Positions 7,064-40,019 of a stretch of DNA of 64,000 nt are shown one piece after another. The position numbers and the translations under genes are program-made. The DNA is from an uncultured delta proteobacterium. Its GTDB lineage: Bacteria > Desulfobacterota > Binatia > UBA9968. How positions within the stretch are numbered: position 1 is the first letter of the stretch; the number at the start of each line of letters is the position of its first letter. Under the pieces are notes generated by a model that was given only the letters and a program-made list of their open reading frames with translations, made no database searches and was not told where the DNA came from. The stretch covers positions 64,001 through 128,000 of the forward strand of contig CAWFJP010000003.1 in NCBI GenBank assembly GCA_963816145.1. The letters run 5' to 3'.

Positions 7064-7083
7064 GCAGAGGGACGAGTGAGTTA

Positions 7084-7506: not shown

Positions 7507-7539
7507 GTGAAGTGCAATACTAAACAAATAGGTGAGGAG

Positions 7540-8142: not shown

Positions 8143-8167
8143 GCCGGGCGGTTCAATTATCCTTCTT

Positions 8168-8659: not shown

Positions 8660-8770
8660 TGATGAATCCTCATTCATCGCAGATTGGCGCCCGGTGTAAG
8701 GTCGAGATGCTCGCCACCCGCGTCATAGCACTGTCGTTCCATTGCTGACAAGAGCTAAACCGGCGATTTG

Positions 8771-8799
8771 TTGACAAGGTTTAGGGCTGAACGTAAGGT
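8771..8799 (+). promoter_or_regulatory. putative sigma70 promoter for the UbiD-family gene
   Basis: ttgaca-17 bp-taaggt, about 40 bp upstream of the RBS aggagg and ATG 8841. Confidence 0.5.
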
Positions 8800-8840
8800 G
8801 GACCAACTTCAATTTTGCTGTCAATTGTCAGGAGGATTTC

Positions 8841-10310: not shown

Positions 10311-10318
10311 CGAAGACG

Positions 10319-10412
10319 GTTCCAGCCGTCCCAATCGTTCCAGAGGTTCCAATGGTAAAACCGGAATCTCCGAAACAAATGGAACGACTGGAACCGTTGG
10401 AACGATTGGAAC
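10319..10412. repeat. 9-bp-period tandem/inverted hairpin repeat (gttcca-nnn)4 ... (tggaac-nnn)4
   Basis: gttccagcc gtcccaatc gttccagag gttccaatg ... tggaacgac tggaaccgt tggaacgat tggaac fills the intergenic gap. Confidence 0.85.
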
Positions 10413-10419
10413 TGATTTT

Positions 10420-11145: not shown

Positions 11146-11710
11146 CCTCCGAAGACTAAGGGTTCAAAGAATCCCAGTTCATTGACTGGTCAACGTCCAT
11201 TATTGAGAACCGAGCCTAGCCGCGAAAGGCGAACGATTGCGGCCCCACCAAGCTGGGACCTCGACCACCGGAGTGTCCAAAAGGTTGAGCGGATTTGTCC
11301 AGGTATTCACCAACCTCACATTAAACGAGAACGACAGGGGCATCGTCCGCGTCATCAGCGGACGTTCGCACAAACCGAGCGTCGTGACCCGCGGCGATGT
11401 GCTGTTCCTCAACGCCGGCAGCGCCGGGCCGAGGAGATTTAAGTTGCTGGTGACCGTTGCGCAACTAAACATTCAGCCCCAAACTTTGTGCTCAGAAATT
11501 GTCGAACTGCTTTAGTGAAGCTGTGACAATGCGACTAAACTCCAAGGTCCGCTAATAAGTAGCGGTTATAATTCTGATGATCGGTACGGGATAAATAAAG
11601 TGTGGTTAGCCCGGGTTTTTAGAAAAGAAAGTTAAGGAACCACGTGAGTTGGCCGTCTCTATTCTCCCGCGTCATTTCTGGGTTCTGCAAAGGGAAACCG
11701 GTTATCTGTA

Positions 11711-24627: not shown

Positions 24628-25716
24628 TCAAGGGGCGGGGTGACGAGTGGTGACAATCGGCCTCGTACTCACCGTCGCGCCGAATTCGCTGCCGTCGTGA
24701 TGCACCGACAACTTCGTGCCCGGTGTCCAGAAATCTTTGTTGACATAACCCAGGGCGATCGGTTTTTGGAGTGCAATCGAAGCCACCGAACTGGTGATTT
24801 GACCTATTTCCTTACCCCCCGCGCTGAGTTTGTCACCGGGACTTGCCGGCGTATCGCCTTCAACCAGCAGGCCGCAGAGCTTCTTATTGACATGACCGCG
24901 CGAACGGATGCGCTCGACGACCTCCTGGCCGAGATAACAGCCTTTATTGAAGCTTACGGCGTCGTCCAGAGCGACTTCGAGCAGCAAATAGTCTTCGGAA
25001 AAATCCACTCCATAGCGGGGGATGCCGGCTTCGACGCGCAAGGTATTCTGTGCCTGCGCGCCGACCCATGCTGCGCCCCGGTCGATCAACCGTTGGGCGA
25101 ATGCCGAAAGCTGTGCAGTTTGGACGATTAGATCGAAGCCATCGTAGCCGCTGCGGTCGGCGCGCACGACGCAGACCGGAGCGCCGTCGAACTGCACCAT
25201 ACCATGGTGATCGGGCTCTGCTGGCAGATCGGCATTACCAAAGACTTTCTCCAGGATCGCTCGCGCCCGCGGCCCCTGGAGCGACAGCATCTTCCACTGC
25301 TCATTGGGGTCGTGGATCTCCACCTCATCGGCGACCAGGTAGCGATTGAGATGAGTCAAAATCTTTTCTTTGAGCGGTTCCCAAAAATCCAAATAGAAAG
25401 AGTTCAACGAGCACAACACTCGGACATCGGCAATCACTTTGCCCTGCTGGGTGAGGATCGTCGCCTGCTGGCCGTCGAACATCTTCAGCGGTCGCAGATC
25501 GTTGGAGAGCATGCCTTGAAGATAAGACAGCCGATCGTCGCCTGTGAACTGAAGCATGGCGCGATTGGCGAGATCGAACAGACCAGCAAACTTGCCGACC
25601 GCTTGGTATTCGCGCGCCGGATCGCCGAAATGGTCCGGCAAGAGCCAACCATCTTGTTCGATGAATGCAGCCCCTTGGCGTTGCTGCAAATCGGAAAGGG
25701 TCGATCGCTTTGCCAT
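24628..25716 (-). CDS. ygfZ: YgfZ/GcvT-family folate-binding protein
   Basis: KGCYLGQEVV signature, LRVEAGIP, GcvT-like N-terminus. Confidence 0.85.
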   Translation of the reverse strand: MAKRSTLSDLQQRQGAAFIEQDGWLLPDHFGDPAREYQAVGKFAGLFDLANRAMLQFTGDDRLSYLQGMLSNDLRPLKMFDGQQATILTQQGKVIADVRVLCSLNSFYLDFWEPLKEKILTHLNRYLVADEVEIHDPNEQWKMLSLQGPRARAILEKVFGNADLPAEPDHHGMVQFDGAPVCVVRADRSGYDGFDLIVQTAQLSAFAQRLIDRGAAWVGAQAQNTLRVEAGIPRYGVDFSEDYLLLEVALDDAVSFNKGCYLGQEVVERIRSRGHVNKKLCGLLVEGDTPASPGDKLSAGGKEIGQITSSVASIALQKPIALGYVNKDFWTPGTKLSVHHDGSEFGATVSTRPIVTTRHPAP

Positions 25717-25834
25717 TGCTGCGAATATATACCGTCAAGCGCTGCCGTTGACAATGCCAATTGCTGGCTTGCGATCATTGATAGATAGATTAGCGGTGTG
25801 ATAGACAGACAGTATCTTATTACGGAGGTGCTTC

Positions 25835-26302
25835 ATGGCAGGACTCGAAGGGCAAAAAGCGCCGGCGTTCACTCTCGCGGGGAGCGACGGCAAACAGCAT
25901 TCGCTGGCTGAGTACGCCGGCAAAAACGTTATTTTGTGGTTTTATCCGAAAGACGACACACCTGGCTGAACCAAGGAAGCGTGCGGGTTCCGCGACGCTA
26001 TCGATACTGTAACCAAAGCCAATACCGTGGTTGTCGGTGTCAGCCCGGATGGCATCGATTCGCACAATCAATTCATCAGCAAGTTTAACCTGCCCTTTGT
26101 TCTGCTCGCCGACCAGCAAAAAGAGACTATGAAGGCCTACGGTGCTTGGGGACCGCGCAAGAACGCCCAAGGCGAAGTATCGGAAGGGACGATCCGTTCG
26201 ACGGCATTGATCGGCGCCGACGGCACGATTAAGAAACACTGGATTCCCGTTACCGATGCCGGCGCTCACCCGGCGGAAGTTTTGGAATTCTTAAATAAAT
26301 AG
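25835..26302 (+). CDS. bcp: selenocysteine-containing peroxiredoxin (BCP/PrxQ family), 155 aa, Sec at TGA 25967-25969
   Basis: RBS ggaggtg and ATG 25835 give MAGLEGQKAPAFTL...[19 protein letters not shown], in frame with the ORF 26027..26302 (GVSPD, RSTALIG). The TGA occupies the peroxidatic Cys position. Confidence 0.9.
25978..25999 (+). promoter_or_regulatory. putative bacterial SECIS hairpin (Prx 1)
   Basis: agcgt-gcgg-gtt-ccgc-(g)-acgct; apical loop begins with G about 17 nt after the UGA. Confidence 0.65.
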
Positions 26303-26316
26303 ATTTTCACTCCATC

Positions 26317-26361
26317 GCTCAGGGAGCGCTCCGTTCAATTCGCCGGTGGCGCTCCCTGAGC
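26317..26361. other. 13-bp perfect stem-loop between Prx 1 and LysR
   Basis: gctcagggagcgc ... gcgctccctgagc, no U-tract; possible mRNA stabiliser or processing site. Confidence 0.6.
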
Positions 26362-26380
26362 TACCCGCTTCACCTATTCC

Positions 26381-27289
26381 ATGGCCAAAGTCAAAGCCGA
26401 TCTTGATCTCCACAAACTAGAAATTTTCTACTGGGTGGCTGAACAGAAGAGTTTTTCTCAAGCTGCCGAATTGTTATCTCTGCGCCAGCCAACCATAAGT
26501 GCTCACGTGCAAGAACTCGAGAAGGCGGTGGGCGGCAAGCTGCTCTACCGCATGCCGGGGAAAGTCAGTCTGACGCCGCTCGGTCTCATGCTCGCCGAAC
26601 GGGCGAAGAATCTGCTCAGTTTCAAGCGCGAAACCATCGCCGCTGTGGAACAGTTTCACGGCACGCTTAGCGGCGAACTTTGGGTCGGTGGTAGCAGCAT
26701 TCCCGGTGAATATCTTTTGCCGCAGAAATTGGGCGAGTTCACCAAGAAGTATCCGAAGGTGAAACCGATCCTGCGCATCGGCGATTCCGCCGGTATCATT
26801 ACCGAACTGATCGAAGGGAAAGTCGAGATCGGCTTTGTCGGCTTTAAAGGCGACGATGGCCGGCTCACCTTCGAGAAGATCTGGGACGATGAAATGGTCG
26901 TGGCGGTACCCAAAGGTCACCCCTGGACCAGGCGTAAAGCCATCGAAGTCGCCGATCTGCGCAATGAAAAATTCATCTCACGCGAACATGGCTCGGGAAC
27001 TCTGGACTCCTTACGCCAATTGCTAGCCAAGCACAAACCACCCGGCGAGCTTTTGAACATCACCATGGAACTCGGTAGCACAGAGGCGGTCAAGGAAGCC
27101 CTGATGGCCGGTTACGGCTTTTCGATCTTATCGCGCATTTCGATCCAACACGAGTTAGCCGACGGCAACATCGTCGAGGTGCCCATCCGCGGCCTCAAGA
27201 TGGAGCGCGGCTTCTATCAAGTATTGCACAGCCGCCGGCCGCTCCATCCCATCGCGCAGACCTTTCGCGTCTTCCTCAAGACACAATAA
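26381..27289 (+). CDS. LysR-family regulator, CysL-like (resembles the selenium-metabolism-associated LysR type)
   Basis: HTH SFSQAAELLSLRQPTISAHVQELE; GGSSIPGEYLLP, REHGSGT, STEAVK typical of CysL-like substrate domains. Confidence 0.9.
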   Translation: MAKVKADLDLHKLEIFYWVAEQKSFSQAAELLSLRQPTISAHVQELEKAVGGKLLYRMPGKVSLTPLGLMLAERAKNLLSFKRETIAAVEQFHGTLSGELWVGGSSIPGEYLLPQKLGEFTKKYPKVKPILRIGDSAGIITELIEGKVEIGFVGFKGDDGRLTFEKIWDDEMVVAVPKGHPWTRRKAIEVADLRNEKFISREHGSGTLDSLRQLLAKHKPPGELLNITMELGSTEAVKEALMAGYGFSILSRISIQHELADGNIVEVPIRGLKMERGFYQVLHSRRPLHPIAQTFRVFLKTQ

Positions 27290-27333
27290 TCGCGGCCAAT
27301 TTTTTCAGGAAAAATTTGCCTGCGGGCTCTTTC

Positions 27334-27348
27334 ATAGCTATTTCCTAT
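27334..27348. promoter_or_regulatory. putative LysR box ATAG-N7-CTAT upstream of the sulfoxide synthase gene
   Basis: atagctatttcctat is a palindromic T-N11-A site in an AT-rich spacer 40 bp before ATG 27388. Confidence 0.5.
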
Positions 27349-27387
27349 TTAGTATATAGCTCAAATGAATTCGCGGAGGGCTGAGAC

Positions 27388-28746
27388 ATGGCACTGTCGC
27401 TGAAGAGCCGGGGACCGAGCGCCGCCGAGCAGTTGCGCGAGAGATTTGCCGCCGCTTGGGCTCGGTCAGATCAATTGTTCGCCATCGTGGGCGACGCGCA
27501 AACGTTGGCCAAGCCGATCGTTTGGCGCCATCCGTTTATTTTCTACATTGGCCATTTGCCGGCGTTCTCTTGGAACCAAGTGTGCGGCGGGATTCTCCAT
27601 TGGCCGTCGTTCAACAGCTATTTCGACGATCTGTTCTGCCGCGGCATCGACCCCGATGTCGACACTGGTGAATGCCATTGGCATCCCGAAGTACCGGACC
27701 AGTGGCCCACACTCGCAGAGACTGTTTATTATCGTGATCGGGTTCGCAGGGCGCTGCTCGATTCTACCGATGCGCTTGGCTATTGCCCTTCCACCGACCT
27801 GCTGGCTCAAGGCGGGCGCGTCTTCGAACTGATCTTGGAGCATGAGTACATGCACCAAGAGACCTTGATGTACATGATGCAACAGATGACGTCCGACGCT
27901 AAGCTCCGGCCGCGCAATTTTCCGCGCTATGCATTCGGACGAGCCGCAGCGAGGGAGACCGTACGGATTCCCGCGGGGAAAGCCCGTTTGGGGACGCGCT
28001 TCGATGAACTAACCTTCGGTTGGGATAATGAATTTTCCGAGATCACTGTGGACGTGGCTGGGTTCAAGATCGACAGTTTGCCGGTGACCAACGGCGAATT
28101 CTTTGAATTCGTCACTGTCGGCGCCTATGCCGATCCGCGCTATTGGCGCCCCGAGGACTGGCAGTGGAAGGAGCTGGAGCACAAACAGCATCCAACTTGC
28201 TGGCTCAAACAAACCGATTGCTGGTTTTATCGCGCCATGTTCGACATTTTGCCCCTCGAACAAGTGGCGAGCTGGCCGGTGTATGTGAGCCTGGCCGAAG
28301 CTCGCGCCTTTGCGAAGTGGCGCGGCCAACGTTTGCCGACGGAAGCCGAATATCAGCGCGCGGCCTATTACGGGCCCAGTGAACGTGAATCGACCTATCC
28401 GTGGGGTGATGGTGAGCCGAGTCCGCGCCACGGCAACTTTGACTTTGCCGCGTGGTCGGCCCATCCGGTCGGATCTCATCCCGCCGGAGCGAGCCGTTGG
28501 GGGGTGCAGGAGCTCATCGGCAATGGCTGGGAGCTGACCGACACACCGTTCGCGCCGCTGCCCGGATTCACGCCATACATGACGACCTATCCGGACTATT
28601 CGAAAGATTTTTTCGACGGCAAGCACTTTGTCGTCAAGGGCGCGTCATGGGCCACAGACAAGCAACTTTTGCGGCCAAGCTTTCGTAACTGGTACCAAGC
28701 CCACTATCCTTATGTGTTCGCCAAATTTCGCTGTGTCAGTGATTGA
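27388..28746 (+). CDS. EgtB/Egt1-like non-heme iron sulfoxide synthase (DinB + FGE-sulfatase domains)
   Basis: RHPFIFYIGHL, RGIDPDVD..CHWH.EVPDQWP, EHEYMHQETL iron ligands, RLPTEAE, GNGWE, RNWYQAHYPY. Confidence 0.85.
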   Translation: MALSLKSRGPSAAEQLRERFAAAWARSDQLFAIVGDAQTLAKPIVWRHPFIFYIGHLPAFSWNQVCGGILHWPSFNSYFDDLFCRGIDPDVDTGECHWHPEVPDQWPTLAETVYYRDRVRRALLDSTDALGYCPSTDLLAQGGRVFELILEHEYMHQETLMYMMQQMTSDAKLRPRNFPRYAFGRAAARETVRIPAGKARLGTRFDELTFGWDNEFSEITVDVAGFKIDSLPVTNGEFFEFVTVGAYADPRYWRPEDWQWKELEHKQHPTCWLKQTDCWFYRAMFDILPLEQVASWPVYVSLAEARAFAKWRGQRLPTEAEYQRAAYYGPSERESTYPWGDGEPSPRHGNFDFAAWSAHPVGSHPAGASRWGVQELIGNGWELTDTPFAPLPGFTPYMTTYPDYSKDFFDGKHFVVKGASWATDKQLLRPSFRNWYQAHYPYVFAKFRCVSD

Positions 28747-28771
28747 TATGGCCGGAGCGAAAGGAATCATC

Positions 28772-29053
28772 ATGAAAGCAATTTGGGAAGATGCCGTTGT
28801 CGCCGAGTCCGACCAAACCATTGTGGTGGAAGGCAATCATTATTTCCCGCCGGATTCGATCAAGAAGGATTGCTTTGGTCCCAGCGACACGCATACGACG
28901 TGCCCCTGGAAGGGTGTCGCTAGCTACTACAACGTGAAGGTTGGCGAAAAGGTCAACGCGGATGCCGCTTGGTTCTATCCCGATCCCAAGGAAGCGGCTA
29001 AGTCAATCAAGGATTATGTAGCGTTTTGGCGCGGCGTAAAAATCGCGGAATAG
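28772..29053 (+). CDS. DUF427 (nucleotidyltransferase-like) protein
   Basis: VEGNHYFPP, TTCPWKGVASYY, AAWFYPDPK, VAFW. Confidence 0.9.
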   Translation: MKAIWEDAVVAESDQTIVVEGNHYFPPDSIKKDCFGPSDTHTTCPWKGVASYYNVKVGEKVNADAAWFYPDPKEAAKSIKDYVAFWRGVKIAE

Positions 29054-29064
29054 GGATCCCGTCG

Positions 29065-29865
29065 ATGAAAGTTTTGCAGCTCGCCTCCTGCATGGCGGAA
29101 AATACCGAACCCTTCTGTAGCGCAATCGCCGAGATCCTCGAGATCGAGGTCGGGATCCCGTTTGAATATGTCACGGGAATTCCTTGGCAAGAACGCGAGC
29201 GTTTATTCGACTTGGGCGAAATCCAGATTCTTTGGCTGTGTGGCCTGCCCTATGTCAGCAAAGCCGATCTCGTTGACAGCGGCATGGAACTGCTTGCAGT
29301 GCCGGTCCCAGCGGGGCCGCGCTACCATGGGCGGCCGGTGTATTTTTCCGATGTTATCGTGCATCGAAAAAGCTCATTCGAGTCGTTCGTCGATCTACGA
29401 GGCGCCGCCTTCGCCTATAACGAGCCGCGTTCCCATTCTGGATTCAATGTCGTGCGCGCTTACTTGGCCGAACTCGGCCAGCGCGACGGTTACTTCGGCA
29501 GCGTCGTCGAATCCGGCGCCCATGCGCGGTCGATCGAAATGATTCTATCGGGCTCGGTTGATTGTGCGGCGATCGACAGCACTGTATTGGAGTGGTTCCA
29601 GGCTCAGCGATGGGTTTTTCGCGACGAGCTGCGCGTTATCGAAACCATCGGCCCTAGTCCGATTCCGCCCTGGGTGGTTTCGACGAAATTGTCCGCCGAT
29701 CTACGCTGCCAAATCCGCCAGCTGCTGCTGAAACTCCACTTACTTCCACGAGGCCGGGCCGCGTTGGCGCAGGCGCAACTGGCGAAATTTATTTCTGCCG
29801 AGGATCGCGACTACGACCCGATTCGCCGCATGGCGCGCGTGGCGGAATCGGTTTTGCTCGCTTAG
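29065..29865 (+). CDS. PhnD-like (phosphate/phosphonate-binding fold) protein lacking a signal peptide
   Basis: WLCGLPY, YFSDVIV, AYNEPRSHSG, SGAHARS, AAIDS, GPSPIPP. Confidence 0.8.
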   Translation: MKVLQLASCMAENTEPFCSAIAEILEIEVGIPFEYVTGIPWQERERLFDLGEIQILWLCGLPYVSKADLVDSGMELLAVPVPAGPRYHGRPVYFSDVIVHRKSSFESFVDLRGAAFAYNEPRSHSGFNVVRAYLAELGQRDGYFGSVVESGAHARSIEMILSGSVDCAAIDSTVLEWFQAQRWVFRDELRVIETIGPSPIPPWVVSTKLSADLRCQIRQLLLKLHLLPRGRAALAQAQLAKFISAEDRDYDPIRRMARVAESVLLA

Positions 29866-29931
29866 AGTCTATGCTAGAACATTCACCGTGCGCAGGAGCA
29901 CATCGCTAAGACAAGAAGGAGGTCAACGAGA

Positions 29932-30396
29932 ATGGCGAGTTTAGAAGGCAAGAAAGCGCCGGCGTTTAGCCTTGAGGGCAACGATGGCAAGAACCATTCG
30001 TTGGAAGATTACAAAGGTAAAACGGTGGTGATGTTTTTCTATCCAAAAGACAGCACCCCTGGCTGAACTAAGGAAGCTTGCGGGTTCCGTGATTTGAACC
30101 CCTCACTCAAAAAGAAAAATGTTGTCGTTCTTGGCGTCAGCAAAGACACCATCGAGTCGCACAACAAGTTTGCCGAGAAGTATCAGTTGCCCTACGTGCT
30201 GCTGTCGGACCCCAAAACCGAAGTCATGAAAAAATACAGCGCGTTCGGCAAGAAGATGATGTATGGCAAGGAAGTGCAGGGAACGATTCGCTCGACCGTT
30301 GTCATCGGCCCTAAAGGCGATGTAATCAAACATTGGCCGACGGTCAAGAAGGCCGAGGAACATCCGAAAGAAGTGCTGGCGTTCCTCAATGGCTAA
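29932..30396 (+). CDS. bcp: selenocysteine-containing peroxiredoxin (BCP/PrxQ family), 154 aa, Sec at TGA 30064-30066
   Basis: RBS aaggagg and ATG 29932 give [14 protein letters not shown]...[19 protein letters not shown], in frame with the ORF 30094..30396. Confidence 0.9.
30078..30092 (+). promoter_or_regulatory. putative bacterial SECIS hairpin (Prx 2)
   Basis: ttgcgg-gtt-ccgtga; same gcgggttccg core and same spacing from the UGA as in Prx 1. Confidence 0.55.
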
Positions 30397-30528
30397 TTCG
30401 ATTCCCTCGGTACTTTACATGAGCGCAATTGCGTCCGGTTTCATCGTAATAAATTAGGATTGACATCGGCTCATGGCGTGATATTTTTCCGTCATCGTAA
30501 ATTTCTATCTCTTTAAGAGGGTGAAACT

Positions 30529-31626
30529 ATGCATCGACGGGAGTTTTTGAAGCAGGGATTGAGCGCCTCGGCGGGATTGGCCTTGGCGGGCATGCCCAGG
30601 TTTGCCGGTTGGGCCTACGCAGACGACCCGACCAAGTGGCGCACTTTTGAAGTCACAACGATTATCGAGGTTAAGGATGCGGTGGGTGGTGTGCGCGCCT
30701 GGGTTCCGGTGCCCTTAACCACCAATACGGATTATTTCAAACGCGAACCCGATACCTGGACCGGCAACTTCAAATCCGCGCGGGCGGTGCAGTATGACAA
30801 ATATGGCACCGGTATTGTTTTCGCGGAATGGGCTCCGAGCGAAAAGGCCCCCCAGCTGGAAGTAAAAAGCAAGTTCATGACCCGCGACCGGGCGATCGAT
30901 GTGAACGGCAAACCGGCGGCCGCGGCAAAAGAAAACGCCGCGGTGCTCAACTATTTCCGCCAGCCCTCCAAATTGATCCGCACCGACGGTGTCGTCGCCA
31001 GCACTTCGAAGAGCATCGTGATGGGGTATAAGAACGATGTCGATAAGGCCAAAGCGATTTACGAATGGATTGTCGACAACACCTTCCGCGACGCCAAGGT
31101 CAAAGGTTGCGGCATCGGCGATATCTCAACCATGCTCGAAAGTGGCTACTTAGGCGGCAAGTGCGCCGATCTAAATGCGCTCTATGTCGGTCTCGCGCGC
31201 GCCGCCGGTTTGCCCGCCCGCGATGTCTACGGCATTCGTGTCGCGAATTCTTCGGAGTTTAAGAGCTTGGGGCGCGCTGACGACATCACCGGGGCGCAGC
31301 ATTGCCGCGCCGAGGTCTATCTCAATGGCCTTGGCTGGACGCCGGTGGATCCTGCCGACGTGCGCAAAGTCGTCCTCGAAGAGAATTTGCCAGGCGAACC
31401 GTTACCGTTGACCGATGCCAAGGTCAAACGGGCGCGAGAGAAATTGTTTGGCGCCTGGGAAATGAACTGGCTGCCGTACAACTACGGTCACGACATCAAA
31501 CTGCCCGGATCGAAGCTGCCAGAAATCGCCTTCCTAATGTATCCGCAATTGGAAACCGCCAACGGCCGACGCGACAGTCTGGACCCGGCGAATTTCAAAT
31601 ACACGATCAAGTCGAAAGAAGTCTAA
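30529..31626 (+). CDS. Tat-exported transglutaminase-like protein
   Basis: HRREFLK twin-arginine signal; triad GKCADLN, QHCRAE, PVDPAD. Confidence 0.88.
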   Translation: MHRREFLKQGLSASAGLALAGMPRFAGWAYADDPTKWRTFEVTTIIEVKDAVGGVRAWVPVPLTTNTDYFKREPDTWTGNFKSARAVQYDKYGTGIVFAEWAPSEKAPQLEVKSKFMTRDRAIDVNGKPAAAAKENAAVLNYFRQPSKLIRTDGVVASTSKSIVMGYKNDVDKAKAIYEWIVDNTFRDAKVKGCGIGDISTMLESGYLGGKCADLNALYVGLARAAGLPARDVYGIRVANSSEFKSLGRADDITGAQHCRAEVYLNGLGWTPVDPADVRKVVLEENLPGEPLPLTDAKVKRAREKLFGAWEMNWLPYNYGHDIKLPGSKLPEIAFLMYPQLETANGRRDSLDPANFKYTIKSKEV

Positions 31627-31652
31627 AATTCTCATCCTGAAGCGGGTTTCGT

Positions 31653-31688
31653 AAGCGAGGCCTCCACATTGTGGGGGCCTCGCTTTTT
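31653..31688 (+). terminator. rho-independent terminator
   Basis: aagcgaggcctccac-att-gtgggggcctcgc-ttttt. Confidence 0.85.
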
Positions 31689-31719
31689 GTAAGAGCTGGG
31701 CTGGAGAAGAGGGGGAATA

Positions 31720-31791
31720 TCACCACAGAGGGCACAGTGATCACAGAGAAATTGAATCTTATCTCTGTGTGCTCTGTGATCTCTGTGGTGA
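31720..31791. repeat. 9-bp-period inverted hairpin repeat (cacaga-nnn)3 / (ctctgtg-nn)3
   Basis: tcaccacagagggcacagtgatcacagag ... ctctgtgtgctctgtgatctctgtggtga. Confidence 0.85.
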
Positions 31792-31846
31792 CAAATCCTG
31801 CCGCTTGATGCGCGACCCCTCACGGTTATGAGGGATCACCGGCAAA

Positions 31847-32704
31847 TTACCGGCTCAAAGCTTCTTGGATCGCACGAGCGACATAAACATGAGTGAGATG
31901 AGCGCGGTATTCGGAAGATCCGTTGATGTCTTCGATCACTTCGATATTGCGCGTCGACTCGGCGGCCGCGTCCTCAATCAATTTTGCGTCGAGCTTCTTG
32001 CCGCTTAACATCTGCTCCGTACGCTCGGGGCGATAAGCTTTGTCGCCGACGCCGGTAACGCCAATCGCCGCGTGGGTGCATATGCCCGCGCTATCGACCG
32101 CCATGCGCACGGCGACGCCGGTAACGGCGAAGCCCGAGGAGCGCGGCGCGGCTTTCTGATACGCGGTCTTGTCGTTGCCGGTCACCGGCACTTTGATGCC
32201 GGTGACGATCTCGTCGGCTTCCAACACGCTCATCAGCAGCCCAAGAAAAAAATCATCGCACTTGACCCAGCGCTCGCCGTTTGGCCCGAAAACGCGAATC
32301 TCGGCGTCGAGGGCGATCACCGCTGCTGGCCAATCGCCGGCCGGATCGGCGTGGGCGACGCTGCCGCCGATGGTGCCGCGGTTGCGCACTTGGACGTCGG
32401 CAATGGTGGTCGCAGTTTGCGGCAGGAGGGGACATTTGACCTTGAGCAAGTCGGAATATTCGATCTGTTCGTGGGTGACCAGCGCGCCGATCACCAAGTT
32501 GTTGCCCTCTTCGCTGATCGTAGCCAAACCGGGGATGCGGCCGATGTCGACGACGTACCCTGGTTTCGACAGGCGCATCTTCATCAATGGCAGCAGACTC
32601 TGGCCGCCGGAAAGTATTTTGACGTCGTCTTTATGGTCCGAGAGGAACTTGACGGCGTCGGTCAAAGAACGGGGCGCGTAGTATTCGAATGCACCGGGAA
32701 TCAT
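31847..32704 (-). CDS. Mo-hydroxylase FAD-binding subunit (CoxM-like)
   Basis: GGQSLLPLMKMRL, IADVQVRNRGTIGGS, ADPAGD. Confidence 0.92.
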   Translation of the reverse strand: MIPGAFEYYAPRSLTDAVKFLSDHKDDVKILSGGQSLLPLMKMRLSKPGYVVDIGRIPGLATISEEGNNLVIGALVTHEQIEYSDLLKVKCPLLPQTATTIADVQVRNRGTIGGSVAHADPAGDWPAAVIALDAEIRVFGPNGERWVKCDDFFLGLLMSVLEADEIVTGIKVPVTGNDKTAYQKAAPRSSGFAVTGVAVRMAVDSAGICTHAAIGVTGVGDKAYRPERTEQMLSGKKLDAKLIEDAAAESTRNIEVIEDINGSSEYRAHLTHVYVARAIQEALSR

Positions 32705-32706
32705 GA

Positions 32707-35133
32707 CTAGAAAGTCCTCCGCTCTTTTTCCGGATTGTGATTGATCAGGCGCCACACTGCCTCCGGCGTGATCGGCAGTTCGCAAACCTTGGCGCCATAC
32801 TGTTGCAGTGCATCCTCCACGGCGCTGGCGATTGCGGCCGGCGACGGTATGGCTGCGCCTTCACCAGCGGCTTTCTGGCCGAGCGACGTAAACGGCGACG
32901 GCGAGGGTTGATGGATGACCTCGACACGCGGTGTTTCGGCCGCCGAGCATTTGCCGTAATCAAGATAGGTGATCGTCAGCGGTTGGCCCTCGGGGCTGTA
33001 CATGAAACCCTCGCCCAAGGCAACGGCGATGCCATGGGCCGCCGAGCCGTAGACCTGGCCGTTGACGACATCGGGATTGATCACCGTGCCGTTGTCACCG
33101 ACGATCAAATAGCGCAGCACGTGCACCGAACCGGTGTTCTTGTCGACTTCAACGATGGCGGCATGGGCGCCGGCGGAAAAGGTGAACTGCGCACGCACCT
33201 TGCGGTCGGCGCCGGGAACGATGTTCGGTTTGGCGTGGGGGAAGGTATAGTAGAAAGTCGCTTCCAATCCGGCTTCCATGCCGTCGGGGATCAGATGCTG
33301 GTTGTTGTAGGCGATGCGGCCCAACTCGGCGAAGGTGATTTGCTTCGCCGCCGCGCCGGGAACTTTGACCACGCTGTCTTCAATGATCAGTTCGGACGGT
33401 TGGGCTTTGAGATTGAAGGCGGCCAACTGCAAGATCTTCTCGCGCAGCTTGGTCGCCGCGCCATGGATCGCGCCGATGTCGTATAAGTGAAAGTTATTGC
33501 CGCTGTTGGCTGCTGCCACGCCCCATGCCGACAGGTCGCTATCGAAGGGGATGCTGGTGGAAATTTTGTCCGGCGACGCGCCGAGAACATCGGCGGCAAC
33601 CTGGGCCGTCGTTGTTTCGTGGGCCTGGCCGCAATTGGGCGAACCCAAATTGAGAGTCAATGTGCCGTTCTTTTCCAGTTTAATTTTCGCGCCGTTGACG
33701 CCGCCCGATCCGGGCGGTTCCTTCATCTCGGGAAAGATCGCCATGTCGCGGGCGGCGTTTCTTCCGCCGGGTTCGACGCCGACGACTACACCGACGCCCA
33801 GGAGCCGGCCTTGCTCGCGGGCTTCTTTCTGCTCGACCAGAAGATTGTCGTAGTCGATCTTTTCCAGCAGGGTTTTCAGCAGTCCGGGGTAGTCGCCGCT
33901 GTCGTAGACGTTGCCGCTGATGGTGCTGTATGGCATTTCATTGGCCTGGATCAGATTTTTTCGGCGCACTTCGATGGGGCTCAAATTGAGCGCTTGGGCC
34001 ACCCGATCCATCATCCGTTCCCAGATGAAACACATGCCCGGCTTGCCGATGCCGCGGTTTGGGATGACCGGGCACTTGTTGGTCACCACCGCGTTGCCTT
34101 CCATGTAAATGGCCGGGGTTTTGTAAGTATTCGACAGGTTATTGAGCTTGTTGGTGAAGTGAATCGTCAGCGTGCTGATGGTGCCACCGACGTCGTCATA
34201 TTCTTTGAACTTGAGACCGAGCACGGTGCCGTCGTTCTTCACCGCCGCCTCGGCTTCGACTTCCTGGTTGCAAGCGTGACCGCCGGCCATCATATGCTCG
34301 GTGCGGTCCTCGACCCACTTTACCGGCCGCCCGGTTTTCATCGCCAATAGCGAAACCAGCACGACGTACTTGCGGATCAAGTGAATTTTTTGACCAAAGC
34401 CGCCGCCGACATCGGGAATGATCACTCGGACGTCCTGCAGCCCTAGCGCTTCGCGCAGGCCGTCATAAATCACTTCCGGTACTTGCGCGGTTACCCAGAC
34501 CGTCAAGCGTTTGCTCGCCGCATCATAGGACGCGATGACGTTGAAAGGCTCCAATGGCGTCGAGCTGTAGCGATGGATTTTTAGTTTCTCGGTAACCACG
34601 CGATCGGCGGACTTGAATGCCGCGTCGATGTCGCCGTATTGCAGCGAACCGGTCCAGGCGAGATTGGTGCCGAGTTCGTCAAACAAAGCCGCCGCCGATG
34701 GTTTGATCGCCTCGTGAACGTCGACATTCGGACGCAGCGGTTCATAGTCGACTTGGATCAACTCCAGGGCATCTTCCGCCGTGCCGCGATCCCACGCGGC
34801 GACCGCCCCGATCGGTTCGCCGACATAGCGGACTTTGTCCACGGCGCCGGCGTACTCATCGATCGGGCGCTTCAAACCGGCGGCATAGCGGCCCGGCTTG
34901 AACGGCTTGGTCATTTTTTTAACATCGTCGGGGGTCACCACGGCAAACACGTTGGGTTGTTTGAGCGCTTCGGAGGCGTCGACCGACAGGATCTTGGCGT
35001 GGGCGTGGGGACTGCGCAGGATCATCGCCTGAAGCATGCCCGGCAATTTGAAATCATCGGTGTAGAGACCGCGGCCGGTGACATGGCGCGGCCCCTCTTT
35101 GCTGCGTGAACGGTTGCCTACGAACTTAGCCAT
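32707..35133 (-). CDS. Mo-hydroxylase large subunit (CoxL-like fold, not a CO dehydrogenase)
   Basis: LRSPHAHA, DVGGGFGQK, active-site loop PNRGIG, YDSGDY, KAAGE. Confidence 0.9.
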   Translation of the reverse strand: MAKFVGNRSRSKEGPRHVTGRGLYTDDFKLPGMLQAMILRSPHAHAKILSVDASEALKQPNVFAVVTPDDVKKMTKPFKPGRYAAGLKRPIDEYAGAVDKVRYVGEPIGAVAAWDRGTAEDALELIQVDYEPLRPNVDVHEAIKPSAAALFDELGTNLAWTGSLQYGDIDAAFKSADRVVTEKLKIHRYSSTPLEPFNVIASYDAASKRLTVWVTAQVPEVIYDGLREALGLQDVRVIIPDVGGGFGQKIHLIRKYVVLVSLLAMKTGRPVKWVEDRTEHMMAGGHACNQEVEAEAAVKNDGTVLGLKFKEYDDVGGTISTLTIHFTNKLNNLSNTYKTPAIYMEGNAVVTNKCPVIPNRGIGKPGMCFIWERMMDRVAQALNLSPIEVRRKNLIQANEMPYSTISGNVYDSGDYPGLLKTLLEKIDYDNLLVEQKEAREQGRLLGVGVVVGVEPGGRNAARDMAIFPEMKEPPGSGGVNGAKIKLEKNGTLTLNLGSPNCGQAHETTTAQVAADVLGASPDKISTSIPFDSDLSAWGVAAANSGNNFHLYDIGAIHGAATKLREKILQLAAFNLKAQPSELIIEDSVVKVPGAAAKQITFAELGRIAYNNQHLIPDGMEAGLEATFYYTFPHAKPNIVPGADRKVRAQFTFSAGAHAAIVEVDKNTGSVHVLRYLIVGDNGTVINPDVVNGQVYGSAAHGIAVALGEGFMYSPEGQPLTITYLDYGKCSAAETPRVEVIHQPSPSPFTSLGQKAAGEGAAIPSPAAIASAVEDALQQYGAKVCELPITPEAVWRLINHNPEKERRTF

Positions 35134-35599
35134 TTTTCATTCCCTTTGCCGCCTCTTTCACGGCGTCGACGATCTGCACATAGCCGGTGCACATGCAAAG
35201 ATTGCCGGCCAACGCTTTACGGATTTCGTCTTCCGATGGATTGGGGTTTTTCTGCAACAGCGCGTAGCTGGTCATCACCATGCCCGGCGTGCAGTAGCCG
35301 CACTGAAAAGCGTAGTTTTTGACGAACGCTTCCTGCACCGGATTGAGCTCGCCGTCTTTGGCCAGTCCTTCGATAGTCGTGATCTCGCGCCCATCGGCCT
35401 GCACCGCGAAATGCAGACATGACTTGACGACTTTGCCATCGAGCAGCACCGAGCAGGCGCCGCACTCGCCGATGACGCAGCCGACATGGGTGCCGGTCAG
35501 ACCTATGGTCTCGCGCAAGAAATGCGCGAGCAAAATACGCGGTTCGACCTCTTCTTCGTAGAGCCGACCGTTAATGGTCACACGAATGGTTTGCTTCAT
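35126..35599 (-). CDS. Mo-hydroxylase [2Fe-2S] subunit (CoxS-like)
   Basis: GCVIGECGAC, QCGYCTPG, NLCMCTGY. Confidence 0.93.
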   Translation of the reverse strand: MKQTIRVTINGRLYEEEVEPRILLAHFLRETIGLTGTHVGCVIGECGACSVLLDGKVVKSCLHFAVQADGREITTIEGLAKDGELNPVQEAFVKNYAFQCGYCTPGMVMTSYALLQKNPNPSEDEIRKALAGNLCMCTGYVQIVDAVKEAAKGMKNG

Positions 35600-35633
35600 A
35601 AGGAATCTAACCTAACTTTTGATACTGCAAGCG

Positions 35634-36494
35634 TCAACTAATCCGTTGGCAGGCTTCTTGAGCGGCACGGGGCACCAAGACTTTTACCAGCTCACGTTTG
35701 TAGTCCGCCGAGCCGCGGTTGTCGTCGGTGGGGTCGCATTCGCTGGCGGCGACTTCGCCCATTTCGCGGAGTAGGTCGTCGTTGATCGTTTTGCCGCGAA
35801 TGACGGCTTCTGCATTCTTGGCGTGGACGATGGTGGCGGAGACGGAATTTAAACCCAAGCGCACGTCTTCGCAGACCCCATTTGTCACTCGCAGCGTGAT
35901 CGCGACGCCCACGGTGGCGAAATCTTCGACGCTGCGCGGCGTGAACTTGATATGCGCCCAGCCGGTCCGACTCGGTGGAGGGACATGGATCTCAGTCAGC
36001 AGCTCGCTGGGCTCCATGGCGGTTTGATAGTAGTCGATAAAGAATTCGTCCAGCGGCAAAGTCCGCTGGCCTTTGCTACTGGTGAGCGTCACTTCGGCGT
36101 CTAACGCAATCAAGCTCGCGCCGGGATCGGTGAGCGGGTCGCCGCCGGCGAGGTTGCCGCCGATAGTACCCATGTTGCGGATGCGCGGTTGGGCGACTTT
36201 GCGGAAGGTTTCATGGAGCAGGGGATAGTGCTGCTTCACCGCTTTCGACAGCTCGATGTCGCGATGGCGCGCACCGGCGCCGATGCGCAGGCCTTCTTTG
36301 GCGTTATAAGTAATCTTGTCGAACTTCGGCAGCCGCGCCAAGCTGATCACGACTTTGGGGGTGAGCAGTCGTTGGCGCATCATGATGATCATCGATGTGC
36401 CGCCGGCCATGACCCTGCCGTCGTCGCCGTGTTTTTCCATCAAGGCGAAGACTTTTTTCAGCGTCGTCGGTTCTTGGTAGTCGAATCTAATCAT
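35634..36494 (-). CDS. Mo-hydroxylase FAD-binding subunit
   Basis: AGGTS, IRNMGTIGGN, DNRGSADYK. Start set at MIRFDY because the upstream in-frame extension is repeat DNA. Confidence 0.9.
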   Translation of the reverse strand: MIRFDYQEPTTLKKVFALMEKHGDDGRVMAGGTSMIIMMRQRLLTPKVVISLARLPKFDKITYNAKEGLRIGAGARHRDIELSKAVKQHYPLLHETFRKVAQPRIRNMGTIGGNLAGGDPLTDPGASLIALDAEVTLTSSKGQRTLPLDEFFIDYYQTAMEPSELLTEIHVPPPSRTGWAHIKFTPRSVEDFATVGVAITLRVTNGVCEDVRLGLNSVSATIVHAKNAEAVIRGKTINDDLLREMGEVAASECDPTDDNRGSADYKRELVKVLVPRAAQEACQRIS

Positions 36495-36526
36495 GCGTCT
36501 GCTTGCCCGTGGGCCAAAAGAGGTTC

Positions 36527-36613
36527 TCACCACGAAGGACACGAAGAGCACGAAGTTCGGAACAATCATTAGTTTCTCTAAACCCTTCGTGCCCTTCGTG
36601 AGCTTCGTGGTGA
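36527..36613. repeat. 9-bp-period inverted hairpin repeat (cacgaag-nn)3 / (cttcgtg-nn)3
   Basis: tcaccacgaaggacacgaagagcacgaag ... cttcgtgcccttcgtgagcttcgtggtga. Confidence 0.88.
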
Positions 36614-36646
36614 AAGATTTTTTCGCTTTCATGTCTCGTGTGCGGC

Positions 36647-38929
36647 TTATTTACTACTCTGTTTTTCCTTTAGGGCGCGAAGTATCTTTTCCGGTGTGAT
36701 CGGCAAGGTCTTCACGCGCACGCCGACGGCGTCGAAGATGGCGTTATTGATCACCGCTGCGGTCGGATCCATGTTGAGTTCGCCCAATCCCTTGGCGCCG
36801 AAGGGGCCGGTGGGCTCGTAAGAATCGGCGAAGGCATGTTGCAGCGGCGGCATGTCGCGCATGGAGGGAATACGATAATCGGAAAAATTGGGGTTGATCG
36901 GCCGCCCTTCCTCGATCTGCAAACCTTCGGTGAGCGCGTAGCCGAGGCCTTGGGCCAAACCGCCTTCGACCTGGCCTTCGGCGCCGATCGGATAGATCAC
37001 TGTGCCGCAGTCGGAGGCGACGACCATTTGCAGGACTTTCACCTGTCCAGTCTGAGGGTCGACGTGAATCTGCGCTGCTTGCACGCCGTAGTTGTACGCG
37101 CCCGATTCGTTGCCGAAGCGGGTGCTATCAGGGAGCACGGAGTCGGCGTCGAAACTGCCGGAGCCGACGATGGGCGCGCCGTTATGGCGGAACAGTCTGG
37201 CGCGGGCGACATCGGCGACGGTCACGGCTTTACCTTCGGCGCCCTTCACGAAAATCCTGCCATCCCGCGACATCATGTCGGCGGCGTTGGCTTCTAACAT
37301 CTCGGCGGCCTGCTCAAAGAGTTGTTGTTTAACGTTGGTGGCGGCGTTCTTGACCGCGTTGCCGCTGACATAGGTTAAACGGCTGGCGAAAGCGCCCAGG
37401 CAAAAGGTCGTCAGATCGGTGTCGGCGCGGGAGATTTCCACATCTTCCACCGGCACGCCGAGCTCTTCGGCGGCGATCTGGCACATCGCCGTGTGCACGC
37501 CCTGGCCGCATTCGCCTTCGCCGCTCAGGATCAGCGCCTTGCCGTCTTCGTTGATTTTGATTGTCGCCGAGCTGCCGTCGTAGTCGCCGAAGTGGCGTTT
37601 GCCGCTGACGTGAACGGTGCAGGCCAAGCCCAACCCCGTGTTCGGCGCTTTGTTGGCGCGCTTGGCTTGCCAGTCGATCATCTTCTCGGTCATGTCGAGG
37701 CACTGCTTGAGCTCGCAACTGGTGACGCGATTGCCGTGCGGCGAGACGTAGCCGACTTCGGCGGCGTTGATACGGGCGATTTCCAATGGATCGATGCCGA
37801 GGGCGTGTGCGCCCAGGTCGATGGCCTGCTCGACCGCCCATTCCGCCGAAGGATTGCCGAAGCCGCGGAACGCTCCGGTGGGAATCTTGTTAGTGTAGAC
37901 AAGCTTGGCTTCGAGCTTGACGTCGGAATACTTGTAGCAAGTGTCATGGCGCATCGCCGCGACGCCGGTGATCGCCGGCGCCTTGGCCGAATAGGCGCCG
38001 TTGTCGGCGATGACTTTCAGTTCTTTGGCACGGATGCGGCCGTCCTTTTTAAATCCCATCTTGACGTTGATCTTCATGAACACACGCGGTCGGCAGCCGG
38101 CCAAAAACTCTTCTTCGCGGCTGTTGATCACCCGCACCGGTTTGCCGGCTTTGCGCGCCAGCACGGCGCAGACCAGCGCATTGTTATCGTCGCAGGACTT
38201 GCCACCGAAGCCGCCGCCGACCGCGCTCTGAATAATCCGCACGTCGGTCTCGGGCACGCCCAAGGCCGTGGCGATGCGGTAGCGCGCATTGAACAGCGTC
38301 TGGGTGTTCATGTAGATCGTATATTTACCGTTGGGCGCATACTCGACCACGCTGCCGATGGTCTCGATGGCACAGTGCCACTGCGGCATGCTGGTGAAGG
38401 TGTCCTCGACGATGATGTCTGAATCGGCGAAGGCTTGGGCGATGTTGCCGCGTTCGAGATCCAAGTGCATGGCGATGTTATTCGGCTTGTCGTCGTGCAC
38501 CAACGGCGCGCCGTCTTGCATCGCTTCATCGGCATCGAACACACCCGGCAACGGCTCCCAGTCCACTTCGATCAAATCGAGCGCTTCTTCGGCGATATCG
38601 GGATCGATGGCCGCCACCGCCGCAACTTCTTCGCCGACGTAGCGGGTTTTACCGACCGAGAGAATATATTGGTCGGCAAAAAATGCGCCCCAGGGGCGCT
38701 TGATCGTGTCTTCGGCGGTGACCATGGCGCGGACGCCGCGCAGCTTCTCGGCCTTGCTGGTGTCGATGCTGCGGATGCGCGCGTGGGGATAGGGGCTGCG
38801 CAAGATCCTGCCGGTGAGCATGCCGGGCAAATGAATGTCGGCGATGAATTTGGAGTCGCCGGTGACTTTGTCGAAGCCCTCGACGCGCTGGACGCGCTTG
38901 CCGACGACGGAGAATTGAGATTTAGCCAT
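36647..38929 (-). CDS. Mo-hydroxylase large subunit (xanthine dehydrogenase / 4-hydroxybenzoyl-CoA reductase alpha-like)
   Basis: LRSPYPHARI, VGGGFGGK, GAFRGFGNP, EGQVEGG, GPFGAKGLGE. Confidence 0.92.
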   Translation of the reverse strand: MAKSQFSVVGKRVQRVEGFDKVTGDSKFIADIHLPGMLTGRILRSPYPHARIRSIDTSKAEKLRGVRAMVTAEDTIKRPWGAFFADQYILSVGKTRYVGEEVAAVAAIDPDIAEEALDLIEVDWEPLPGVFDADEAMQDGAPLVHDDKPNNIAMHLDLERGNIAQAFADSDIIVEDTFTSMPQWHCAIETIGSVVEYAPNGKYTIYMNTQTLFNARYRIATALGVPETDVRIIQSAVGGGFGGKSCDDNNALVCAVLARKAGKPVRVINSREEEFLAGCRPRVFMKINVKMGFKKDGRIRAKELKVIADNGAYSAKAPAITGVAAMRHDTCYKYSDVKLEAKLVYTNKIPTGAFRGFGNPSAEWAVEQAIDLGAHALGIDPLEIARINAAEVGYVSPHGNRVTSCELKQCLDMTEKMIDWQAKRANKAPNTGLGLACTVHVSGKRHFGDYDGSSATIKINEDGKALILSGEGECGQGVHTAMCQIAAEELGVPVEDVEISRADTDLTTFCLGAFASRLTYVSGNAVKNAATNVKQQLFEQAAEMLEANAADMMSRDGRIFVKGAEGKAVTVADVARARLFRHNGAPIVGSGSFDADSVLPDSTRFGNESGAYNYGVQAAQIHVDPQTGQVKVLQMVVASDCGTVIYPIGAEGQVEGGLAQGLGYALTEGLQIEEGRPINPNFSDYRIPSMRDMPPLQHAFADSYEPTGPFGAKGLGELNMDPTAAVINNAIFDAVGVRVKTLPITPEKILRALKEKQSSK

Positions 38930-38961
38930 ATTGGTTATCGTTGAGCGTATTCTTTCGGATT

Positions 38962-39047
38962 ATCTCTCGCAAAGACGCTAAGCTCGCAAAGGGAAGAACA
39001 ACTTCTTGGGTCTTAATACTTGGCGTCTTTGCGCCTTTGCGAGAGAT
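38962..39047. repeat. 8-9-bp-period inverted hairpin repeat (cgcaaag / ctttgcg)
   Basis: atctctcgcaaagacgctaagctcgcaaag ... cttggcgtctttgcgcctttgcgagagat; a half copy lies at ~22471-22493. Confidence 0.85.
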
Positions 39048-39057
39048 TGTCTTAATC

Positions 39058-39609
39058 TTAGCTCGTTTTTGCCACCGGTTTATAAACGTCGAGGCTCTGA
39101 ATCTTTGCTGTGGTCTCGCGTTTACGAAACTGATAATCCGGATCGGTTTTGCCATTGATCACGGCCATCACCGATTCGAGAATCTTGTAATATCCCGTGC
39201 AGCGGCACAGATTGCCCGACATCCACTCCTTCACCTCTTCTTCACTCGGCTGGGGATTTTCATCGAGCAGAGCTTTGGCAGCCATGATCTGGCCTGGAGT
39301 GCAGATGCCGCACTGAAAGCCGCCATATTCAATAAACGCCTGCTGCAGCGGATGGAGCTTGCCGTTTTTAGCCAGTCCCTCAATGGTTTCGATATTTTTG
39401 CCTTCACAGCCAGCAGCTAGGGTCAGACAGGAACTTACCAGGCGGCCATCGACAATCACGCTACACGCGCCGCAGACGCCGATGCTACAACCCTCTTTGG
39501 TGCCGGTGAGGTCGAGGCTGTCGCGCAGCACTTGCAACAGCAAGCGGTTGGCTTCGACTTCGACCTCGTAATCTTGTCCGTTGACGGTGAGAGTCAACTG
39601 CTTTTTCAT
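39058..39609 (-). CDS. Mo-hydroxylase [2Fe-2S] subunit
   Basis: [26 protein letters not shown]. Confidence 0.92.
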
Positions 39610-40019
39610 GTCGCCGACCATAGCGTTTGTCGCCAATAGATTCAACGTTTCGGGCGCATAAAGGCTGGCGTGAATCGCCCGGGCTCCGAGACATTTTCCC
39701 AGGAGAATTGAATCCAAGATTCGTACTCGCCTTGCCTAGTGATTGGGCAAGCTGCCCGGATATTCGGCATTGGATGAATCACGATCTGTCCAATCCAGTT
39801 GTGAACCGGGTATATCCTGAGGGTTTCGAGATCGTACTAAATGATTTTGCCAATACGACGGTGGCGTGAAATCTTGCTCCGAAATTTCCCTGAGAGTTTT
39901 AATTGGACTGATGATTCAGTTGTGATATGGCGTCAATGTGGGTCGGGTTGCCTTACCATAATCCTGGTCGTCAGGGTTTCATTCGAAATAATTTACCGGT
40001 CGTGGATAAGGAGAACAGC

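Follow-up and report, generated by a model that had tools for sequence, protein, structure and literature searches.

Is a gene island that places an ergothioneine-type synthase among selenoprotein genes part of a new selenium pathway, or does selenium act on it by way of regulation? The question is raised by a 64,000-nucleotide stretch of a soil bacterium genome (contig CAWFJP010000003.1; hereafter the window), in which seven genes on the + strand (25835-31626) encode two selenocysteine (Sec) peroxiredoxins (BCP1 and BCP2), a LysR-family regulator, a non-heme iron sulfoxide synthase, a DUF427 protein, a PhnD-fold protein and a transglutaminase-like protein. An original prediction, made from the DNA letters, took the locus for a selenium-responsive module making or recycling a seleno- or thio-histidine antioxidant without SenB. 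Its account of the layout holds: gene calls with fitting Pfam and NCBIfam assignments confirmed seven co-oriented genes, the middle three are tightly spaced (gaps of 25 nt between synthase and DUF427 and 11 nt between DUF427 and the PhnD-fold gene), a hairpin with a U-run follows the last gene as the claimed terminator, and where egtD, senB, selD and a C-S lyase were said to be missing, the window's open reading frames of at least 100 aa show no egtD, senB, selD or aminotransferase domain. Our reading of its function differs. With a probability of roughly 0.6, this is the antioxidant gene island of a Sec-using, selenoneine-capable bacterium, in which a regulator of the LysR_Se family controls an ergothioneine-type synthase operon. 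What the island appears to add is not another selenium pathway but a new connection, by way of regulation, from selenium status to a sulfur antioxidant.

The identity of the synthase bears most directly on this question. Residues H56, H152, H156 and Y401 align with the three-histidine iron triad and catalytic tyrosine of the solved structures 8VIH, 8KHQ and 4X8B, and R47, Y53, N434, W435 and Y436 complete the set of key residues. Ranked against solved structures, the protein matches EgtB-IV best (190 and 179 bits), followed by EgtB-I (168), OvoA (160), OvsA (116), SenA (91) and EgtB-II (70). We read its active site against the composite motif that Kayrouz et al. give in a preprint (PMC11030361, methods and Supplementary Table 4), mapping motif residues via pairwise alignments and an alignment of 97 representatives. 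The motifs given there are RxYH--DxHxHYxNWFx for EgtB-IV and xNEH--HRHxHYYN.. for SenA; the window enzyme reads RHYH, HMH, YYNWYY (R47 H48 Y53 H56; H152 M155 H156; Y401 Y404 N434 W435 Y436 Y440), in agreement with EgtB-IV at 12 of the 13 positions read out of 17 (all but the D/x pair and the two gap positions). The R..Y pair, which binds cysteine in OvoA (PMC10696552), is common to the window synthase, OvoA and EgtB-IV. SenA and OvsA carry N-E at these positions, and their selenosugar motif, N-E/H-R, is absent from the window synthase, which has R-H-Y-H there. N434-W435 is the signature of the hercynine-accepting classes, at positions where OvoA has (Y/F)-A-F and AshA has H-F-Y. Among 98 representative sequences the window's exact pattern occurs in 18 and the F form in 19, and both NWY and NWF forms are found in EgtD-fused relatives. 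The protein also departs from OvoA itself in its length of 452 aa, its two domains only, with no methyltransferase domain at the C-terminus, and its N-W-Y. By all features testable, the synthase, whose class is already known, is predicted to be a C-S and not a C-Se enzyme. The selenium chemistry originally proposed for it is not borne out: cysteine-binding R47/Y53 are present, the selenosugar motif is absent and the SenA model scores 220.3 bits against a cut-off of 420.

A full-library search returned 643 representatives of the synthase at E <=1e-30. Among the best 150 of these, 30 are at least 547 aa long; 21 of the 30 carry an EgtD domain (14 N-terminal, as in Egt1, and 7 C-terminal). An aminotransferase of class I/II, the lyase type, is present in six, and an OvoA-type methyltransferase was found in none. 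Of 33 distant loci (synthase identity to the window's best segment 37-62%), 27 have egtD as the immediate neighbour of the synthase gene; in four of the remaining six, the sequence runs out no more than 160 bp from that gene. We also built a tree from 85 selected sequences (a subset of the matches) and rooted it on this genome's SenA. It groups the cluster-type enzymes in one clade (support 0.991) that nests among EgtD fusions, with neighbour supports of 0.58 and 0.85 that do not settle the exact sister. Structure matches, EgtD-fused relatives and the tree thus agree with the Egt1/EgtB-like character claimed for the enzyme. These relatives are EgtD-fused or EgtD-adjacent whatever their selenium status, a pattern that speaks against a selenium-specific role: selD was found in 27 of the 32 genomes with distant homologs and not found in five, including an isolate genome with a DUF427 gene beside a synthase-egtD pair. 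Among the 37 cluster-bearing genomes, 32 have egtD elsewhere.

The same genome holds the canonical pathway to selenoneine. On contig C29, genes for SenB (339 bits, cut-off 300) and SenA (489, cut-off 420) are followed 5 kb on by one for EgtD (304, cut-off 290.9); besides SenA, the window gene was the only full-length EgtB-like gene found in the genome. Neither senB nor selD, which is on contig C30, lies beside the window synthase. The C29 region (L012, G000:C29:294000-312000, 900-11466) comprises senB, senA, genes for a GlcNAcase-like protein, an alpha/beta hydrolase, a second FGE-like protein and a LysE-type exporter, and egtD. After egtD come a ProV-like ATPase and a permease fused to an OsmF-like binding domain, a pair that resembles the ergothioneine transporter EgtUV. 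Because this senA-senB-egtD cluster is present, the SenB-independent seleno-histidine route of the original prediction is unneeded. Co-occurrence with selenium genes, proposed as a check, is no more telling. SenB was found in 31 of the 37 genomes with a cluster-type locus (SenA over its cut-off in 26), and across 121 evenly sampled genomes of the order SenB occurs in 107, with or without a window-type cluster, versus 46 with the synthase. The sen genes are therefore a lineage trait, uninformative on the cluster, and their co-occurrence was rejected as proof of a selenium function.

We infer that the link to selenium lies in regulation and in the selenoproteins, not in the C-S bond-forming chemistry. 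The LysR protein scores 267.8 bits on NF040786 (cut-off 250), placing it in the selenium-associated LysR_Se subfamily as the predicted selenium link would have it, with selenoprotein genes on both sides and Sec machinery in the genome. This group was defined by Lin et al. and is related to HrsM, the controller of Sec/Cys isogenes in Methanococcus (PMC5322559). OxyR-like thiol sensing was rejected, since the window protein has no cysteine and 7 of 17 checked orthologs are also cysteine-free. The box between regulator and synthase genes, of the LysR-type transcriptional regulator (LTTR) kind, lies in a spacer of 98 nt and is kept as CATAG-N7-CTAT..TATAG in 21 of 21 aligned sequences, the rest of the spacer being variable. 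The 7.8-Mb genome contains its 26-nt pattern exactly once, all 18 other matches having three mismatches; the 15-nt half is single-copy at <=1 mismatch, and when the box was used to look for a regulon, that genome yielded no further site. In relatives the box is always on the coding strand, directly following the LysR gene and ahead of either the synthase or a Cys-BCP, the latter being the first gene of the synthase operon. Additional copies stand before a selenate-type ABC transporter (L042), a transglutaminase-like gene (L047) and a permease (L083, a genome with the regulator and without the synthase). From this pattern, LysR may bind the box and control the synthase, DUF427 and PhnD-fold genes.

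Both BCP genes, of PrxQ/BCP type, have an in-frame TGA at codon 45, the peroxidatic Cys position, within the motif TPG-U-TKEAC. That this TGA encodes Sec, as predicted, is backed by codon swaps in relatives, by hairpin retention and by the Sec machinery, with tRNA-Sec, selA, selB and a Sec-containing selD all on contig C30. Across a comparison set of 70 related loci, codon 45 is TGA in 22 and Cys (TGC/TGT) in 7 BCP1-type genes, and TGA in 8 and Cys (TGC/TGT) in 20 BCP2-type genes. (Counts include the unpublished genomes G019, G030, G107, G112, G129, G139 and G182; no claim hangs on these alone.) The hairpin resembling a selenocysteine insertion sequence (SECIS) starts 11 nt past the UGA; its mean dG is -12.9 in TGA forms (n=32, both window genes counted) and -6.8 over the same region in Cys forms (n=27), the loss arising via synonymous changes, and the p value of this comparison overstates because the sequences are related. 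Folded as single sequences, the two window SECIS regions give z of -0.64 and -0.23, which are not significant alone. The Sec-peroxiredoxins themselves are a known selenoprotein family, the Bcp type with motif TxxU being among those listed in PMC9312934.

The position of these genes around the regulator shows a trend. The BCP upstream of LysR has Sec in 22 of 22 relatives and a BCP directly downstream of LysR has Cys in 11 of 11; in the window's gene order, BCP2 has Cys in 10 of 15 loci and Sec in five, the window among them. Upstream of BCP1, 21 aligned regions keep TTGAT.G ... GGTGTGATA.A between variable flanks, and this element may be the BCP1 promoter. At the place of the strong terminator-like hairpin after BCP1, a GC-rich hairpin was found in all 21 type-A relatives (same gene order) folded, in some of them with a T-run, so BCP1 probably forms a transcription unit by itself. 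In relatives, about 2 kb upstream of the LysR gene, there is also a gene for a third, distant AhpC/TSA protein that has Sec in DFTGG-U and is absent from the window. Ten of the 70 related loci hold such a distant peroxiredoxin with TGA. It was seen in L017, L019, L021, L024, L025, L037, L045, L047, L051, L053 and L083, with the LysR-BCP-synthase order and also in a genome with the regulator and without the synthase.

Two accessory proteins are encoded behind the synthase. DUF427 has a beta-tent fold shared with MsrB (PMC4287342) and a single invariant cysteine (Cys44); single-sequence fold prediction gave no usable model (mean predicted local distance difference test score 41). Close homologs (52-78% identity) are fused to EgtB (2, both orders), EgtD (1), the PhnD-fold protein and MauE, and also to thioredoxin (2), DsbD_TM (3), ThiS (5) and flavoprotein (disulfide) oxidoreductases (2). 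The EgtB and EgtD fusions tie DUF427 functionally to the synthase, of whose module it had been claimed to be part. Table 1 of PMC13674229 lists DUF427 beside 5.7% of such synthases, without comment.

The PhnD-fold protein has no signal peptide and its alignment to mature AioX begins near residue 1, in keeping with the cytoplasmic location claimed for it. Its closest solved relatives are the periplasmic arsenic-oxyanion sensors AioX (82 bits) and ArrX (71), with PtxB (39) and PhnD (26) far behind. The AioX pocket consists of Tyr88, Cys106, Tyr131, Ser161, Ser163, His192 and Asp210, the Cys bonding arsenite (Badilla et al., PMC5908839). Six of these seven residues, the arsenite-bonding Cys included, are kept in 13 of 13 orthologs, with Tyr88 replaced by Trp, and two further N-terminal cysteines are invariant as well. 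On TIGR04553 (cut-off 250) the protein scores 66.2 bits, whereas true members in relatives score 340.7; the selenate-type binding proteins of three relatives have signal peptides and Gly at the position of the AioX-type pocket Cys. The putative selenate ABC transporter (PhnC-like, two PhnE) follows BCP2 in L042 (8434-11832), L027 and L063, where it occupies the place of the window's transglutaminase-like gene. Across 300 other genomes of the phylum no close homolog of the PhnD-fold protein turned up (highest identity 37%), and no partner kinase or response regulator was found in the cluster.

Could the module still make or recycle a seleno-histidine compound without SenB, with the PhnD-fold and DUF427 proteins supplying the synthase with a selenium donor? 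Fungal Egt1 can use selenocysteine, every cluster genome is a selenium user, and the LysR_Se membership, the cysteine-lined AioX-like pocket, which could hold selenite or selenide, and the selenate-type transporter in the cluster of three relatives would all fit. We nevertheless hold this to be very unlikely, given that the thiol-binding residues are those of cysteine-using OvoA and EgtB-IV and not the SenA/OvsA motif, that the canonical sen cluster exists in the same genome and most relatives, that relatives lacking the window-type cluster have sen genes just as often, and that an isolate genome in which selD was not found has the DUF427-synthase-egtD arrangement. Another substrate is also conceivable: with free histidine the enzyme would make 2-thiohistidine, like AshA and TgiA-II, or 5-thiohistidine, like OvoA, in place of an ergothioneine precursor. 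The best NCBIfam match is to the OvoA N-terminal model, PMC13674229 describes His-using enzymes of the OvoA branch whose imidazole contacts resemble those of EgtB, and egtD lies within the locus in 0 of 37 cluster-type loci, so that a change of substrate after loss of linkage is possible. N434-W435, however, fits the hercynine-accepting classes and not OvoA or AshA, the same motif occurs in EgtD-fused relatives, most cluster genomes do have egtD, and ATP-grasp, methyltransferase and OvoB genes were not found nearby. On balance, free-histidine use seems quite unlikely.

A third explanation is that the genes are neighbours by descent within one family only, with the peroxiredoxins, the regulator and the synthase operon functionally independent. 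The locus did prove to be a conserved unit when gene order was compared among relatives, yet flanking housekeeping genes (HAD, NUDIX, Rieske, GcvT-like and xanthine dehydrogenase (XDH) subunits) are syntenic too, so that the conservation is partly mere shared ancestry. The cluster was seen in a single bacterial family, in about half of the genomes sampled: the window-type synthase was found in 45 of 87 genomes of this family plus the window's own genome, and in 0 of 5 and 0 of 28 genomes (0 of 33 together) of two sister families. The DUF427 gene and the PhnD-fold gene are each absent from some relatives. Against independence, the box stands conserved beside the regulator gene amid variable sequence and occurs only once in the genome; two gene orders both keep LysR together with a BCP and the synthase; and of four tested genomes of the genus that lack the synthase, three have no regulator ortholog either. 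An empty-site search in three same-genus genomes without the cluster located neither the site nor the flanking GcvT-like gene. We regard mere neighbourhood as unlikely. Several further observations, like the syntenic flanks and the unlinked egtD, tell against the ergothioneine-operon reading that we prefer. The synthase falls under every NCBIfam equivalog cut-off (OvoA_Nterm 258.8/400, EgtB 224.5/360, SenA 220.3/420) and has Y at motif position 16 (residue 436), where the strict EgtB-IV motif has F. Five of the 37 cluster genomes, all incomplete metagenome-assembled genomes, yielded no egtD, and a search of eight cluster-type loci (L018-L025) did not find the box. The downstream BCP also has Sec in the window and in 4 of the 14 same-order relatives for which both BCP genes were seen, so the Sec/Cys pattern is not clean; BCP2 may also have its own promoter, given a TGnTAnA-type extended -10-like element at 29871-29882, about 50 nt before the gene, that recurs in several relatives. 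Many of the DUF427 fusions, finally, come from one metagenomic gene call each and may be artefacts of gene calling.

In the preferred reading, an ergothioneine-type synthase operon under LysR_Se control, LysR would bind its box and control the synthase gene and, along with it, the closely packed DUF427 and PhnD-fold genes. The enzyme would couple cysteine to C2 of hercynine, supplied by an unlinked EgtD that also feeds SenA; with hercynine from this shared EgtD, the cell could make ergothioneine beside selenoneine. An unlinked C-S lyase would complete the product. DUF427 would use its single invariant Cys to assist ergothioneine metabolism in thiol-redox chemistry or sulfur transfer, and the AioX-like protein may bind a small oxyanion or a reactive sulfur or selenium species through its cysteines. 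A bolder version seems unlikely: a selenium-status switch, in which the HrsM-like LysR_Se would turn on a sulfur back-up unit at selenium scarcity, with ergothioneine replacing selenoneine and Cys-PrxQ replacing Sec-PrxQ, the unit consisting of the ergothioneine synthase, DUF427 as an ergothioneine-linked redoxin passing electrons to PrxQ-type peroxiredoxins, and the cytoplasmic AioX-like protein as a binder of selenite, selenide or a related species.

If the proposed regulation holds, this would be the first case found of a selenium-associated LysR controlling synthesis of a sulfur antioxidant. A literature search turned up no publication that connects EgtB to LysR_Se or to peroxiredoxins, and the co-occurrence table of PMC13674229 has neither LysR_Se nor peroxiredoxins at >=1%. 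A cytoplasmic AioX-like protein would widen a family whose known members are all periplasmic arsenic sensors. Both it and the uncharacterised DUF427 would gain a testable setting, the DUF427 fusions pointing to thiol-redox chemistry around ergothioneine. To our knowledge, no dedicated bacterial redox partner for ergothioneine has been described.

Table 1. Genes and signals of the island, in window coordinates
Feature	Position	Strand	Remarks
Promoter-like element upstream of BCP1, TTGATA ... GGTGTGATAGA, extended -10 type	25778-25807	+	Conserved in alignment
Sec-peroxiredoxin BCP1 (PrxQ/BCP type), 155 aa	25835-26302	+	UGA 25967-25969 = U45; resolving Cys50; AhpC-TSA 123.8 bits
BCP1 SECIS-like hairpin, GCGUGCGG-GUU-CCGCGACGC	25976-26002	+	Kept in TGA forms, lost at synonymous sites in Cys forms
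Strong terminator-like hairpin after BCP1	26317-26361	+	dG -33.8, z -6.1; no U-run in window copy
LysR_Se-family transcriptional regulator, 302 aa	26381-27289	+	NF040786; 0 Cys
LTTR-type box, ATAG-N7-CTAT then TTAGTATATAG	27334-27359	+	In front of synthase, just downstream of LysR gene
Non-heme iron sulfoxide synthase, OvoA branch, EgtB-IV/Egt1-like, 452 aa	27388-28746	+	DinB_2 + FGE-sulfatase
DUF427 protein, 93 aa	28772-29053	+	Invariant Cys44; PF04248 116.2 bits (gathering 22.1); PDB 3DJM match
PhnD-fold protein, AioX/ArrX-like, cysteine-lined pocket, 266 aa	29065-29865	+	C9, C18, C59 invariant
Sec-peroxiredoxin BCP2, 154 aa	29932-30396	+	UGA 30064-30066 = U45; Cys50; SECIS-like hairpin weaker
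Promoter-like site TTGACA-16-TATTTT, TG before -10	30460-30487	+	Consensus match only; upstream of transglutaminase-like gene
Transglutaminase-like protein with twin-arginine translocation (Tat) signal	30529-31626	+	Transglut_core 71.8 bits; conserved neighbour
Intrinsic terminator	31653-31690	+	15-bp hairpin + U-run; dG -34.1, z -4.4

The transglutaminase-like gene follows BCP2 in most relatives, and a sequence search found no solved relative of its product. Between this gene and a convergent XDH-family gene lies a long, imperfect, CACAGAG-rich palindrome (31714-31798; dG -48.6, z -6.75), on which an Rfam scan of 25000-32500 gave only sub-threshold matches to microRNA models, on both strands. 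Three sets of XDH/CO-dehydrogenase-family molybdoenzyme subunits are encoded in the window (4760-7060, 31847-39717), one of which adjoins the cluster itself and shows synteny in relatives. Farther away (49487-59593, - strand) lies the gene for a 3369-aa non-ribosomal peptide synthetase with three condensation-adenylation-thiolation (C-A-T) modules and an N-terminal formyltransferase domain.

Set beside known systems, the parts of the island are familiar to differing degrees. The window BCPs share TPGU, the SECIS hairpin and a resolving Cys five residues on with the known Sec-peroxiredoxins (Prx, COG1225 Bcp, TxxU), from which they differ in nothing of note. HrsM of Methanococcus belongs to the same regulator subfamily, and its neighbourhood, as described in PMC5322559, has paralogous Sec and Cys forms of one enzyme; the window system differs in being bacterial, in having as its putative target an operon for a small-molecule thiol synthase, and in that both window paralogs have Sec. 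AioX and ArrX (PDB 6ESK, 6X6B), the best solved relatives of the PhnD-fold protein, share with it the pocket Cys, Tyr, Ser, Ser, His and Asp, whereas the window protein is predicted to be cytoplasmic, has no partner sensor kinase, carries two extra invariant N-terminal cysteines and has Trp for Tyr88. The SenA/SenB/SenC and OvsA/OvsM clusters use enzymes of the same superfamily as the synthase, and with the true sen cluster of this genome hercynine is probably shared; unlike their enzymes, the synthase has no selenosugar motif and no adjacent senB or senC, and its SenA score is half the cut-off. Closest to the synthase are EgtB-IV (PDB 8VIH/8VIG), its best PDB match, and the Egt1-type EgtD fusions, its nearest relatives, with which it has in common the DinB_2 and FGE-like fold, the three-histidine triad, the catalytic Tyr, the R/Y pair and N-W. 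It differs from EgtB-IV in sequence (about 35-40% identity by eye), in one Y for F and in having no adjacent or fused EgtD, and it stands apart in its setting, behind a LysR_Se box and beside peroxiredoxins, DUF427 and an AioX-like protein.

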